DNA of 64,000 nt from Escherichia coli (lineage in GTDB: Bacteria > Pseudomonadota > Gammaproteobacteria > Enterobacterales > Enterobacteriaceae): NCBI RefSeq assembly GCF_044324785.1, contig NZ_CP172127.1. The stretch is one strand, 5' to 3'. The position numbers and the translations under genes were made by a program. Shown here piece by piece: positions 10,437 to 12,906 of this stretch; the first letter of the stretch is position 1, and each line of letters opens with the position of its first letter. Under the pieces are notes generated by a model. That model saw only the letters and a program-made list of their open reading frames with translations. It was not told the origin of the DNA and did no database searches.

Positions 10437-11192
10437 TTAACGCGTTCGCTGCGAAAGCACCTGCTGCTTATCCAGCTTTTGCACCAGCGGTTGCACCACT
10501 TTATCCCCATGCTGACCAAAGTATTGATATAGCGTATCGGACGCACTTTTGGTCAGCACCATAATCTCAATGCGCCGATTGCCCGCGCTTTGCGGATTTT
10601 TGGCATCCAGCAGCATCTGGTCCGCCATTGCGCTTACCTGCATCACTTTATCTTCCGGCATTCCGGCCTCTTCCAGCACCCGACGGGCCGAAAGCGCGCG
10701 ATCGCCCGAAAGGTTCCAGTTGTTATAGATATTGTTTTTGTAGGCCATCGCATCGGTATGCCCGGTAATAATAATTTTGTTATCGAGCGAGTCGAACACT
10801 GGCGCGAGCTCCACCAGCAAAGTTTTAAAGAACGGCATAATCTGCGCGCTGCCGCGTTCGAACATATTGCGATTCTGGTCGTCTTTAATCAGCACGCGTA
10901 ATCCCTGCGGGACAATCTCCATCTCCAGATTCGCTTCCATATGCGCATCACGGGCAATGGTGTTGATACTGGTTGCCAACTCGCCAAGCTCGGTGGCGGA
11001 TTTCTTCTTCAGCAGCGCCGTTTTCTCATTCACATCACGCGCTTTTTTCTCCGTCTCTTCCGGCACCGCCACGGTGGCAGGTTTTGGCGGATGAGACGGG
11101 CTGATTTTATTTAACGGCGATAGCCCACCACCGTTAAAAATCGACTGCCCGTGCAGCGCGGCGATAATGCTTTCACGCTCGGATTTACTGAC
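10437..11192 (-). pseudogene. lafU: lafU remnant: 5'-truncated MotB-like lateral-flagellar (Flag-2) motor gene
   Basis: The C-terminal two-thirds of ORF 10437..11327 matches the MotB/OmpA-like domain (IITGHTDAMAY...NWNLSGDRALSARRVLEEAGMP...NRRIEIMVL). The N-terminal TM region is absent; the upstream part of the ORF is antisense read-through into lfhA. Confidence 0.7.
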
Positions 11193-12906
11193 GCTGTTGA
11201 CAATCAACTTTATCGTCGTCACCAAAGGGGCCGAGCGTATTTCCGAGGTTTCTGCCCGCTTTACCCTGGACGCGATGCCCGGCAAGCAGATGGCGATTGA
11301 CGCCGACCTTAACGCCGGGTTGATCAACCAGGCGCAGGCGCAAACCCGGCGTAAAGATGTTGCCAGTGAGGCCGATTTCTACGGCGCGATGGACGGGGCA
11401 TCGAAGTTTGTACGCGGGGATGCCATCGCCGGAATGATGATTCTGGCGATCAACCTGATCGGCGGCGTCTGTATCGGGATCTTCAAATACAACCTGAGCG
11501 CCGACGCCGCCTTCCAGCAATATGTGCTGATGACCATCGGCGACGGGCTGGTGGCACAGATCCCTTCCCTGCTGCTCTCCACCGCGGCGGCGATTATTGT
11601 CACCCGCGTCAGCGACAACGGCGATATCGCCCATGACGTGCGCCACCAGCTGCTGGCAAGCCCGTCGGTGCTCTACACCGCTACCGGAATTATGTTTGTG
11701 CTGGCGGTGGTGCCGGGGATGCCGCATCTGCCGTTTTTGCTGTTCAGCGCCCTGCTGGGTTTTACCGGCTGGCGGATGAGCAAACGCCCGCAGGCGGCGG
11801 AGGCGGAAGAGAAAAGCCTCGAAACACTGACCCGCACTATCACTGAAACCAGCGAGCAACAGGTCAGTTGGGAAACCATTCCGCTGATCGAGCCTATCAG
11901 CTTAAGTCTCGGTTACAAGCTGGTGGCGCTGGTGGACAAAGCGCAGGGGAACCCGCTCACCCAGCGGATTCGCGGCGTGCGGCAGGTGATATCCGACGGT
12001 AACGGTGTGCTGCTGCCGGAGATCCGCATTCGGGAAAACTTCCGCCTCAAGCCCAGCCAGTACGCCATTTTCATCAACGGCATTAAGGCCGATGAAGCGG
12101 ATATTCCGGCGGATAAACTGATGGCCCTGCCCTCCAGCGAAACCTACGGCGAGATAGACGGCGTACTGGGGAACGACCCGGCGTACGGGATGCCGATCAC
12201 CTGGATCCAGCCTGCGCAGAAGGCGAAGGCGCTGAATATGGGGTATCAGGTGATCGACAGCGCCAGCGTGATTGCTACCCATGTGAACAAGATTGTGCGC
12301 AGCTATATTCCTGATTTGTTTAACTATGATGATATTACTCAGCTGCATAACCGTTTATCGTCGATGGCTCCACGGCTGGCGGAAGATTTGAGCGCGGCGC
12401 TGAATTACAGCCAGCTGCTGAAAGTGTACCGCGCGCTGCTGACCGAAGGCGTTTCCCTGCGCGATATCGTCACCATCGCCACCGTGCTGGTCGCCAGTAG
12501 TGCGGTGACCAAAGATCATATTCTGCTGGCGGCAGATGTGCGCCTGGCGCTGCGGCGCAGCATTACCCATCCGTTCGTTCGCAAGCAGGAGCTGACGGTG
12601 TATACGCTGAACAATGAGCTGGAAAATCTGCTGACCAACGTAGTGAATCAAGCGCAACAGGCCGGCAAAGTGATGCTCGACAGTGTGCCGGTGGACCCGA
12701 ATATGCTCAACCAGTTCCAGAGTACGATGCCGCAGGTGAAGGAGCAGATGAAAGCGGCGGGGAAAGACCCTGTGCTGCTGGTGCCACCGCAGTTGCGCCC
12801 TTTGCTGGCGCGCTATGCGAGATTGTTTGCGCCGGGGCTGCATGTGCTGTCGTATAACGAAGTGCCGGATGAGCTGGAGTTGAAGATTATGGGGGCGTTG
12901 AGTTGA
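11167..12906 (+). pseudogene. lfhA: lfhA remnant: 5'-truncated FlhA-like Flag-2 export gate gene
   Basis: 579-aa ORF with FlhA homology from about 11215 (VVTKGAERISEVSARFTLDAMPGKQMAIDADLNAGLI...) through a complete FlhA cytoplasmic domain. It lacks the N-terminal ~100 aa of FlhA and abuts the lafU remnant, i.e. the Flag-2 deletion junction. Confidence 0.75.

Follow-up and report, generated by a model that had tools for sequence, protein, structure and literature searches.

An lfhA'–lafU' remnant of the Flag-2 flagellar cluster in Escherichia coli and its junction in several enterobacterial genera

The stretch at positions 10437–12906 of the window (the whole 64,000 nucleotides of E. coli DNA that we analysed) is the lfhA'–lafU' remnant of the Flag-2 cluster, a flagellar cluster of the lateral type. 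To our whole account, in which this Flag-2 remnant was left by a deletion that joined one ATC triplet to another, is a common Escherichia allele and has been spread by homologous recombination, we give a probability of roughly 90%. The lfhA'–lafU' scar is already known and belongs to the textbook anatomy of the E. coli genome; the K-12 pseudogenes fhiA and mbhA were reportedly recognized as the remnant of a Flag-2 deletion by Ren et al. in 2005. They are also named as K-12 remnants elsewhere (PMC3032704), and our literature search on fhiA/mbhA returned only mentions that were already known.

Endpoints of the deletion and the K-12 allele

Endpoints were placed against an intact reference, locus L001 of E. 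coli E16, in which lafU encodes 307 aa and lfhA 697 aa. Gapless blastn alignments assign positions 10437–11205 (minus strand) to L001 10383–11151, that is, to lafU codons 53–307 and the stop, and positions 11203–12906 (plus strand) to L001 46079–47782, or lfhA codons 131–697 and the stop; the aligned blocks themselves extend over window positions 10302–11208 (L001 10248–11154) and 11194–12913 (L001 46070–47789). The loss amounts to 155 nt of lafU (codons 1–52) and exactly 390 nt of lfhA (codons 1–130), which gives precise limits to the claim of a preliminary description, made from the sequence alone, that both reading frames keep only their 3' portions. In a three-way alignment of the window with the lafU and lfhA sides of L001, the junction falls on a shared ATC at 11203–11205, which is present once in the window and at both deletion endpoints in intact loci and thus constitutes a 3-bp microhomology. 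The divergent fragments had been estimated to abut or overlap at about 11170–11215, a range that contains this junction, and the alignment to an intact locus that had been proposed as a check has now fixed both the endpoints and the repeat between them. The fragments are directly fused, with a 3-bp overlap and without a spacer, and their fusion produced a small palindrome that can be read off the sequence (GTTGA-CAA-TCAAC, 11196–11208), uniting the outer halves of an imperfect inverted repeat derived from two transmembrane-coding segments.

In intact loci (lfhAB...lafTU, as in E. coli 042, E16, JNQH497 and LS4), lafU is the last gene of a leftward operon and lfhA the last gene of a rightward operon. 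The retained parts are colinear with these loci and align to them gaplessly, the identity to E16 being 97.7% on the lafU side and 94.7–94.8% on the lfhA side; unlike them, the window lacks 34.9–38.1 kb (about 40 flagellar genes), including the first 52 codons of lafU and the first 130 of lfhA. The missing interior measures 34,930 bp as compared to E16, 35,582 bp as compared to JNQH497 and 38,138 bp as compared to LS4, and a search of the 64-kb window with the 34.9-kb interior of E16 found no match except REP-like repeats, in agreement with the earlier claim that the interior of the cluster has been deleted. The position of the scar between dinB (9311–10366, minus strand), whose context is that of K-12 and of strains with intact loci, and yafL, which encodes an NlpC/P60 peptidase (13068–13826, minus strand), was confirmed in the window. 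The DinB protein of the window is a very common E. coli allele and accompanies both the scar and the intact state. An Rfam scan of positions 9000–14500 identified no RNA family.

The junction is identical to that of K-12: one gapless blastn alignment to K-12 crosses it, the scar is 95.9% identical, and between positions 11150 and 11250 a single base differs from K-12 MC4100. The window and K-12 have in common both fragments (lfhA' or fhiA, and lafU' or mbhA), their divergent layout, the junction and the dinB–yafL setting, and they differ further out, the window being devoid of rayT and dinJ–yafQ on the right side and of yafO on the left, where rtcB–prfH is intact. The scar is found in 4,071 of the 5,426 complete E. 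coli genomes, and the left and right interior ends in 1,323 and 1,291 of them, respectively, from which it follows that E. coli has essentially two states and one junction. A candidate for an alternative junction, P0213 (a 271-aa LafU without plug), was rejected, since the cluster around it is intact and its start is either damaged or mis-called. A previous survey described an lfhA–lafU deletion with direct repeats at its ends and found truncated copies in 76 of 100 E. coli (PMC6993521). We infer that the scar arose outside this genome, which carries the common allele that K-12 and most other E. coli have too; this refines the preliminary description.

Read-through reading frames and the protein fragments

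Two long open reading frames are listed for the region, one of 296 aa (10437–11327, minus strand) and one of 579 aa (11167–12906, plus strand). They had been described as artefacts, and this is what they are: the 296-aa frame is composed of about 41 codons antisense to lfhA and LafU residues 53–307, the 579-aa frame is composed of 12 codons antisense to lafU and LfhA residues 131–697, and both owe their existence to antisense frames that by chance stay open. On the plus strand the extension (11167–11202) consists of an ATG and 11 further codons (MLSRSDLLTLLT) that are antisense to lafU' and not part of LfhA; on the minus strand it reaches into antisense lfhA' (11206–11327) as far as a mechanical start at TTG 11327, and the RefSeq-style CDS starts at GTG 11222, yielding a 261-aa "LafU".

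That the two frames might be full-length proteins unrelated to FlhA and MotB, the outcome named as refuting the preliminary description, is contradicted by their profile matches, which are to the expected LafU and FHIPEP/FlhA families and of partial length; nor did an intact locus of the lineage place the ends of lafU and lfhA anywhere else, which would equally have spoken against the identification. The minus-strand frame matches the NCBIfam LafU profile NF005273 (E = 1.2e-143; 477.9 bits, cutoff 383) only from aa 41 to 287 (profile positions 42–297), and Pfam finds in it OmpA only, as compared to MotB_plug (PF13677, residues 19–70) plus OmpA in intact E16 LafU; when the latter is used as a tblastn query, the alignment begins at residue 53, with 99.2% identity. 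What lafU' retains is the periplasmic linker and the OmpA-like domain, while the N-terminus, the transmembrane helix and most of MotB_plug are gone. The hydrophobic segment of LafU, which starts at residue 35, is deleted through residue 52, and the minus-strand frame shows neither the N-terminal transmembrane helix with the conserved Asp nor the PF13677 match that characterize a MotB/LafU stator. The plus-strand frame aligns with Pfam FHIPEP (E = 4e-189), starting at profile position 99 of 657, and with TIGR01398 FlhA, starting at position 114 of 678; its TIGR01398 score of 593.4 bits is below the full-length cutoff of 772.1. With TIGR01398 positions 1–113 left without a match, it is not a full-length FlhA/FHIPEP export-gate protein. 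Of the hydrophobic segments of intact LfhA, those at residues 7–66 and 108–143 are lost or cut in lfhA'. LafU' has neither its membrane anchor nor most of its plug, LfhA' lacks its first 130 residues with the N-terminal transmembrane segments, and neither can perform its function in a flagellum. The two fragments are also putatively promoterless, given the anatomy of the locus (3' ends of outward-reading operons) and the cited literature, and a consensus scan identified one weak sigma-70-like site (11141–11168).

One could nevertheless envision that the truncated proteins, LfhA' with 579 aa and LafU' with 261 or 296 aa, have been selected for a new role. Neither frame is interrupted in the window or in any of the 14 E. 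coli scars that were read over their whole length, and both are open also in Atlantibacter, Kluyvera, Citrobacter and other taxa. In RefSeq the 261-aa LafU is entered as an ordinary CDS, and the dN/dS ratio is near 0.03 (0.026 for lfhA' and 0.033 for lafU' among scars), indicating that the divergence accumulated under constraint. However, the value among intact alleles is the same (0.032), and sequence common to scar and intact alleles, which show 0 differences in two pairs, explains the low ratio. Furthermore, decayed scars exist in large E. coli groups, one with a frameshift (L113, in a protein cluster of 794 sequences) and one with a nonsense codon (L114, in a cluster of 581), and the scar of the E. 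albertii type strain has an internal 22-nt deletion; these lesions argue that the remnants are not under universal selection. By our estimate, a neutral divergence of about 0.3% would be enough to disable roughly half of all ORFs 1.7 kb in length. LafU' is devoid of a membrane anchor or signal sequence that would take it to the periplasm, LfhA' begins in the middle of a hydrophobic segment, the N-terminal extensions of both are antisense by-products, and both fragments have probably lost their operon promoters. We thus consider a new role highly improbable; genome annotations would best label both the 579-aa "FlhA" and the "LafU" of 261 or 296 aa as pseudogene fragments.

Scar and intact alleles within E. 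coli

Scar alleles do not form a clade in E. coli, and their flanks are sometimes identical to those of intact loci in sister strains. K-12 and the intact strain JNQH497 are identical over 6,769 bp on the left and differ at none of 1,704 positions in lfhA', and the same pattern is seen between E138 and LS4. In KSC1031, 6 of the 11 sites that differ from E16 lie within 11031–11271, around the junction, and strain S1 has the K-12 allele only at 11137–11582, beside a Chi site (11547–11554); such patches of other ancestry are as expected for import by homologous recombination. Polymorphism common to scar and intact alleles begins 11 bp from the junction, and a dS of 0.21 in lfhA' attests to very deep allelic diversity at the locus. 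We propose that the scar allele travels between backgrounds through short-tract homologous recombination while its flanks would keep being swapped with those of intact loci. Exchange of this kind would explain why, in most strains, the unselected remnants have kept the appearance of healthy genes. The pairs that show zero differences up to the junction are harder to reconcile with spread by recombination.

Flag-2 has been called a recombination region and an "insertion" within ST131 (PMC4637896, PMC5369007), and the second of these terms (PMC5369007) would suit a reversible, site-specific process in which a 35-kb island leaves and re-enters, the scar being its attB site and GATGATCATCCACAG the predicted junction of the 35-kb circle. 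Such a process would switch the state of the locus without a trace in the flanks, and it could also be read from a comparison of two intact loci, in which SNP density jumps at the right junction, from 2–4 per 500 bp inside to 20–33 per 500 bp outside. Set against this, the annotation of the cluster contains no integrase or recombinase, the core would be only 2–3 bp long, and conservation between genera does not extend to the arm on the lafU side; the locus thus falls short of the conserved core, the recombinase-binding arms at both ends and the recombinase gene expected of an attB-like scar. In addition, across 49 intact LfhA proteins, divergence of the N-terminal part, which belongs to the interior, goes along with divergence of the retained C-terminal part (r = 0.87), which argues against an independently mobile interior and leaves the hypothesis of a cassette or island unsupported. 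We judge site-specific excision to be very improbable.

One junction in several genera and the origin of the deletion

The junction recurs outside E. coli: E. albertii and Atlantibacter share it with nucleotide precision, and Citrobacter, Kluyvera, and Cedecea-like and Dryocola-like taxa share it with codon precision. Contigs were scanned with a generic FHIPEP peptide pattern, the relevant loci among the matches listed being two intact Citrobacter loci, one E. albertii scar and one from Aeromonas; other genera were found by protein searches and exact-protein look-ups. Scars outside E. coli sit on flanks of their own lineage, and their neighbouring genes differ: an NlpC/P60 gene adjoins three of them (L104, L106 and L109), and none is called beside the scar on a fourth contig (L107). 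Truncated Flag-2 loci have been described for E. albertii and further Enterobacteriaceae (Carter et al. 2024; De Maayer et al. 2020, with 531 lfhA/lafU-deleted strains). Those of the E. albertii type strain and of the other taxa named above have the junction of the window; unlike the window, the E. albertii type-strain scar is visibly decayed, and LafU' in other genera is only 45–64% identical to that of E. coli.

Within a taxon, scar and intact flanks are close: conspecific flanks are 99.2% and 98.9% identical in Atlantibacter, the scar–intact pairs P0050/P0057 and P0120/P0119 are 99.8% and 97% identical, and Kluyvera P0266 and P0282, when the two sequences are read side by side, are near-identical across the common part of LafU. 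The first 21 bases of lfhA' differ at 4 positions between the scars of E. coli and those of Atlantibacter, each matching the intact alleles of its own lineage, and in the few sequences examined we saw no scar-specific substitutions beside the junction that were common across genera. One junction on genus-specific flanks is likewise hard to reconcile with spread by recombination, as these genera have diverged too far for ordinary homologous recombination.

Precise excision of Tn10 and Tn5 proceeds through slipped-strand mispairing of the short direct repeats found on either side of inverted repeats. The Flag-2 deletion may have formed in a comparable manner. A single deletion, extending from lafU codon 52 through lfhA codon 130, took out the whole interior. 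It probably joined two ATC triplets, between which lay a segment ending in imperfect inverted repeats (15 of 20 nt) that are the parts of lafU and lfhA coding for transmembrane helices; this arrangement of direct and inverted repeats is that of slipped-strand precise excision, the ATC lying just outside the inverted repeats as the direct repeat of the transposons does. There are differences, however. Where the transposons have direct repeats of 9 bp and a perfect inverted repeat of about 1 kb, the Flag-2 ends have a direct repeat of 3 bp (2 bp in Atlantibacter) and an inverted repeat of about 20 nt with 75% identity; the loop is 35 kb long, and the predicted stem is not above chance. Only 215 of 1.8 million lafU × lfhA site pairs equal or exceed the end complementarity of the real endpoints, and among pairs with a 3-bp direct repeat only 7 of 32,262 match it. 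Generic tests of direct repeats within ±60 nt of the breakpoints and of inverted repeats in 400-nt windows gave results no better than shuffled sequence, the predicted stem in a DNA fold of the two ends is no more stable than that of shuffles (z = −1.3), and the minimum free energy fold of the Atlantibacter ends does not contain it. Formation of an inverted-repeat structure by ends separated by a 35-kb loop would be very unlikely. Together with the shortness of the direct repeat, these results count against the proposed mechanism of origin, which is weakly supported.

If such a structure did direct deletion, intact loci in many lineages would independently shed the 35-kb segment with breakpoints that agree to the nucleotide, and most scars would be of recent origin, each derived from the intact locus of its lineage. 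This would fit the single junction, which E. coli, E. albertii and Atlantibacter share with nucleotide precision and the other genera with codon precision, as well as flanks that are lineage-own and near conspecific intact alleles (Atlantibacter, P0050/P0057, P0120/P0119, Kluyvera and K-12/JNQH497); no other complete-deletion junction was seen among complete E. coli genomes. The inverted repeat of the deletion ends also ranks in the top 0.012% of E. coli site pairs and is found at 14 of 20 nt in Atlantibacter. Yet a 2–3-bp repeat with a 15/20 inverted repeat over a 35-kb loop appears too weak to be singled out from thousands of microhomology pairs, the fold does not rise above shuffles, beyond the junction the Cedecea-like lineage has not conserved the sequence on the lafU side, the cluster has no annotated recombinase, and two E. 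coli scars have patches that fit import by recombination and not deletion in situ. We therefore regard recurrent deletion as doubtful, and assign an equally low probability to the idea that intact Flag-2 loci across Enterobacteriaceae carry a built-in "eject" route in the conserved transmembrane-helix coding of lafU and lfhA, which, if true, would explain why scar flanks are everywhere lineage-own and intact-like.

Alternatively, one ancestral deletion in Enterobacteriaceae could have coexisted with the intact allele ever since, held by balancing or niche-dependent selection, with gene conversion up to the heterology boundary keeping the flanks lineage-typical and mostly open. The junction is one and the same everywhere, and every taxon examined contains both scar and intact states, with which the published finding that pseudogenes occur mainly in taxa also having complete loci agrees (PMC6993521). 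The intact fraction is about 24–27% in complete E. coli genomes and similar in E. albertii (PMC11420993) and in Citrobacter clade A (PMC6993521), and both the deep allelic diversity of lfhA' and the co-divergence of the intact interior with its flanks would be in keeping with an old polymorphism. On the other hand, the two states would have to persist over genus-level splits, and conversion tracts would have to end within a few bases of the junction, given the lineage-typical bases at the start of lfhA'. An ancient polymorphism is thus a possibility that we entertain only tentatively.

Our preferred account for E. coli, a common scar allele spread by homologous recombination, leaves a broader pattern to be considered: one junction occurs in at least six genus-level lineages on flanks near-identical to the local intact allele. 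This could reflect either a long-lived presence/absence polymorphism whose flanks are kept open by recombination or a structure-directed recurrent deletion, and in either case the pattern across genera would bear on how bacterial populations lose and regain gene clusters that are large and costly.

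The lafU-lfhA junction and its surroundings

The two ORFs at the locus, which overlap by 161 bp, have LafU and FlhA family matches far above chance level. The 296-aa minus-strand ORF (10437..11327) is an equivalog match to LafU, the lateral-flagellar stator protein (NCBIfam NF005273, E 1.2e-143, 477.9 bits against a cutoff of 383), with OmpA as its only Pfam domain; the 579-aa plus-strand ORF (11167..12906) matches Pfam FHIPEP (E 4e-189) and, at 593 bits against a full-length cutoff of 772, TIGR01398 FlhA. N-terminal truncation is visible already in the profile alignments, which pair only residues 41-287 of the 296-aa ORF with NF005273 positions 42-297, and begin for the 579-aa ORF at position 99 of 657 (FHIPEP) and 114 of 678 (FlhA).

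As reference we used the intact Flag-2 locus of E. coli E16 (L001), where about 40 flagellar genes lie between lafU (307 aa) and lfhA (697 aa). Window 10302-11208 aligns with L001 10248-11154, and window 11194-12913 with L001 46070-47789; at base level the lafU-side match stops at 11205 and the lfhA-side match starts at 11203, with ATC common to both, so the deleted segment is L001 11152-46081, or 34,930 bp (35,582 bp and 38,138 bp for its equivalents in the intact strains JNQH497 and LS4). Apart from REP-like repeats, the cluster interior has no match elsewhere within the window. The loss from lafU is 155 nt (codons 1-52), and the lost segment, MRK...FADFTLAMMALFMTLW, contained the sole TM helix and most of the MotB_plug domain; from lfhA exactly 390 nt (130 codons) are gone, so that the first hydrophobic block is missing and the second is cut into. 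In the 579-aa ORF, LfhA 131-697 is preceded by 12 codons that read antisense to lafU (MLSRSDLLTLLT); in the 296-aa ORF, LafU 53-307 is preceded by about 41 codons antisense to lfhA. RefSeq labels the lfhA part 'incomplete, missing N-terminus' and still calls a LafU CDS of 261 aa, whose GTG start lies within antisense lfhA. The preliminary description had read these ORFs as 3' portions of MotB-like and FlhA-like genes, abutting or overlapping at about 11170-11215 after deletion of the Flag-2 interior, and their apparent intactness as an artefact of read-through; it had looked to alignment with an intact locus for the endpoints and any junction repeat. It was correct in every part, the junction now being pinned to ATC at 11203-11205 and the repeat to 3 bp.

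Several neighboring features differ among strains. In the dinB-yafN-yafO-yafP operon the toxin gene yafO is absent at 8935-8966, between yafP (ORF 8482-8994) and yafN (8966-9259), about 376 bp being missing relative to the K-12-like JNQH497; the antitoxin gene yafN is kept without its partner, and E16 and LS4 have neither. The minus-strand rtcB-like (379 aa) and prfH-like (232-aa ORF) genes at 6414-8164 appear intact, whereas the K-12 annotation gives both as truncated pseudogenes. REP-like repeats lie at 12907-13067, filling the 160-bp gap between lfhA' and yafL, and at 15657-15713, with similar copies also within intact Flag-2 loci; the lfhA'-yafL spot holds hicAB in E16, ETEC4068 and others, rayT in K-12, LS4 and others, and neither in the window. 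A type VI secretion region follows at 22411-51501, with genes for an Rhs protein (22411-26640, minus), VgrG (26707-28815, minus), TssF (32949-34799), a ClpV-like AAA+ ATPase (39666-42563) and TssM/IcmF (44742-48266).

Frequency, diversity and exchange within E. coli

The K-12 MC4100 scar locus aligns with window 10302-12901 in a single gapless alignment (95.9% identity) with an identical junction, and fhiA and mbhA are published as Flag-2 remnants in K-12 (PMC3032704). The scar is real, rightly interpreted and previously known as the K-12 allele. The fused arrangement was found in one piece in 4,071 of 5,426 complete E. coli genomes, the lafU-5'/lafT interior end in 1,323 and the lfhB/lfhA-5' end in 1,291; in essence, then, E. 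coli shows two states and only one complete-deletion junction, in agreement with the literature. The closest of these genomes reached at most 97.5% identity to the window over the scar and 98.6% over the next 6 kb (e.g., 10437-12906 and 13000-19000), which places the window in an Escherichia lineage missing from that set. NZ_CP026085.1, a 4.83-Mb genome labelled E. coli DH5alpha, has a lafU-5'/lafT interior 100% identical to that of E16; its label or assembly looks wrong, since a K-12 derivative should be without the Flag-2 interior.

Scar alleles do not form a clade. Between the K-12 scar and the intact JNQH497 locus there is no difference over the 6,769 bp leading up to the junction from the left, nor in the 1,704 nt of lfhA', a pattern like that of E138 (scar) and LS4 (intact); polymorphism common to scar and intact alleles starts 11 bp from the junction. 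Of the 11 sites at which the scar strain KSC1031 differs from E16, 6 fall within 11031-11271, and in another, S1, the K-12 allele is confined to 11137-11582, its haplotype block stopping at 11583, just past a Chi site (GCTGGTGG) at 11547-11554 (+), within lfhA' and about 340 bp from the junction. Such patches are the trace that import of a scar by homologous recombination should leave. Flag-2 gain within ST131 and recombination at the locus have been published (PMC5369007, PMC4637896), and spread of the scar by recombination within E. coli is supported. Intact loci, too, suggest that recombination once broke at, or very close to, the junction position: JNQH497 (L016 43501-45500) differs from L001 by 2-4 SNPs per 500 bp immediately within the right deletion endpoint and by 20-33 immediately beyond it.

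Both lafU' and lfhA' are gapless and without premature stops in 14 E. coli scars, the window's among them; among nine scar alleles, pairs differ at up to 110 of 1,704 nt, with dN/dS of 0.026 for lfhA' and 0.033 for lafU', against 0.032 for intact alleles. The low dN/dS is not evidence for function: a 1-nt frameshift marks one large E. coli protein cluster (L113; 794 sequences), a nonsense codon another (L114; 581 sequences) and a 22-nt deletion the E. albertii type strain. Within E. coli, allelic diversity here runs unusually deep, with synonymous divergence of about 0.21 for lfhA' (11203-12906) and 0.12 for lafU' (10437-11205). Identity of yafL between strains is only about 94%.

One junction across genera

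In the E. albertii type strain the junction is identical, and the flanks share about 90-92% identity with the window; Flag-2-negative E. albertii are reported to carry truncated flhA plus lafU (PMC11420993). Searches of other taxa with the chimeric 579-aa ORF as protein query recovered truncated LfhA ORFs in which an antisense-lafU peptide is followed by the same LfhA residue in each (MFLRSFSLTLLT joined to INF in Atlantibacter, with similar fusions in four more lineages at 69-91% identity). Although LafU' on these contigs is just 45-64% identical to that of E. coli, and the neighboring genes differ, similarity to LafU sets in at residue 53 in every case and similarity to LfhA at residue 126-131. 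Truncated LafU ORFs with KL, the antisense of lfhA N-F, followed by IVNSVS occur in Atlantibacter hermannii, Kluyvera ascorbata, Citrobacter gillenii, C. amalonaticus and a Dryocola-like taxon; a Cedecea-like lineage keeps IMGAVTEEE, directly after the W of intact MVLW-IMGAV. In Atlantibacter subterranea both sides are readable at the nucleotide level: intact lafU has GTTGACGAT followed by CCACAG, intact lfhA has GATCAT followed by TAACTTC, and the scar has GTTGACGAT followed by TAACTTC, placing the junction at the E. coli position with 2 bp of microhomology. Its scar flanks match conspecific intact loci at 99.2% and 98.9% identity, and other scars also have near-identical intact counterparts (P0050/P0057, 99.8%; P0120/P0119, 97%). 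A single junction, resolved to the base in E. coli, E. albertii and Atlantibacter and to the codon in the remaining taxa, is found in at least six genus-level lineages, each time with intact-like flanks of the lineage's own.

Across genera, two explanations compete: a very old polymorphism, with scar flanks continually renewed from intact alleles, or structure-directed deletion recurring at one junction. For the latter, the ends of the deleted segment are imperfect inverted repeats (15/20; ATCCACAGGGTCATAAACAG against the reverse complement, GATCATCAGGATGATAAACAC; 14/20 in Atlantibacter), immediately inside the ATC repeats, and complementarity as good occurs in only 215 of 1,798,121 lafU x lfhA site pairs and 7 of 32,262 pairs with a 3-bp direct repeat. 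Direct repeats flanking inverted repeats are the layout of slipped-strand 'precise excision'. The inverted repeat stems from similar hydrophobic helices (LFMTLWI, VFIILMI) that the two genes encode in opposite orientation. However, the predicted stem is no more stable than shuffled sequence, and such a structure across a 35-kb loop would be a weak driver of deletion. Generic repeat searches around the breakpoints gave nothing significant, and no recombinase is among the annotations of the Flag-2 cluster. An independently mobile interior cassette is not supported, as LfhA N- and C-terminal identities covary (r = 0.87, 49 intact proteins).

Taken alone, the scar is a known feature of E. coli; its junction is shared across genera.
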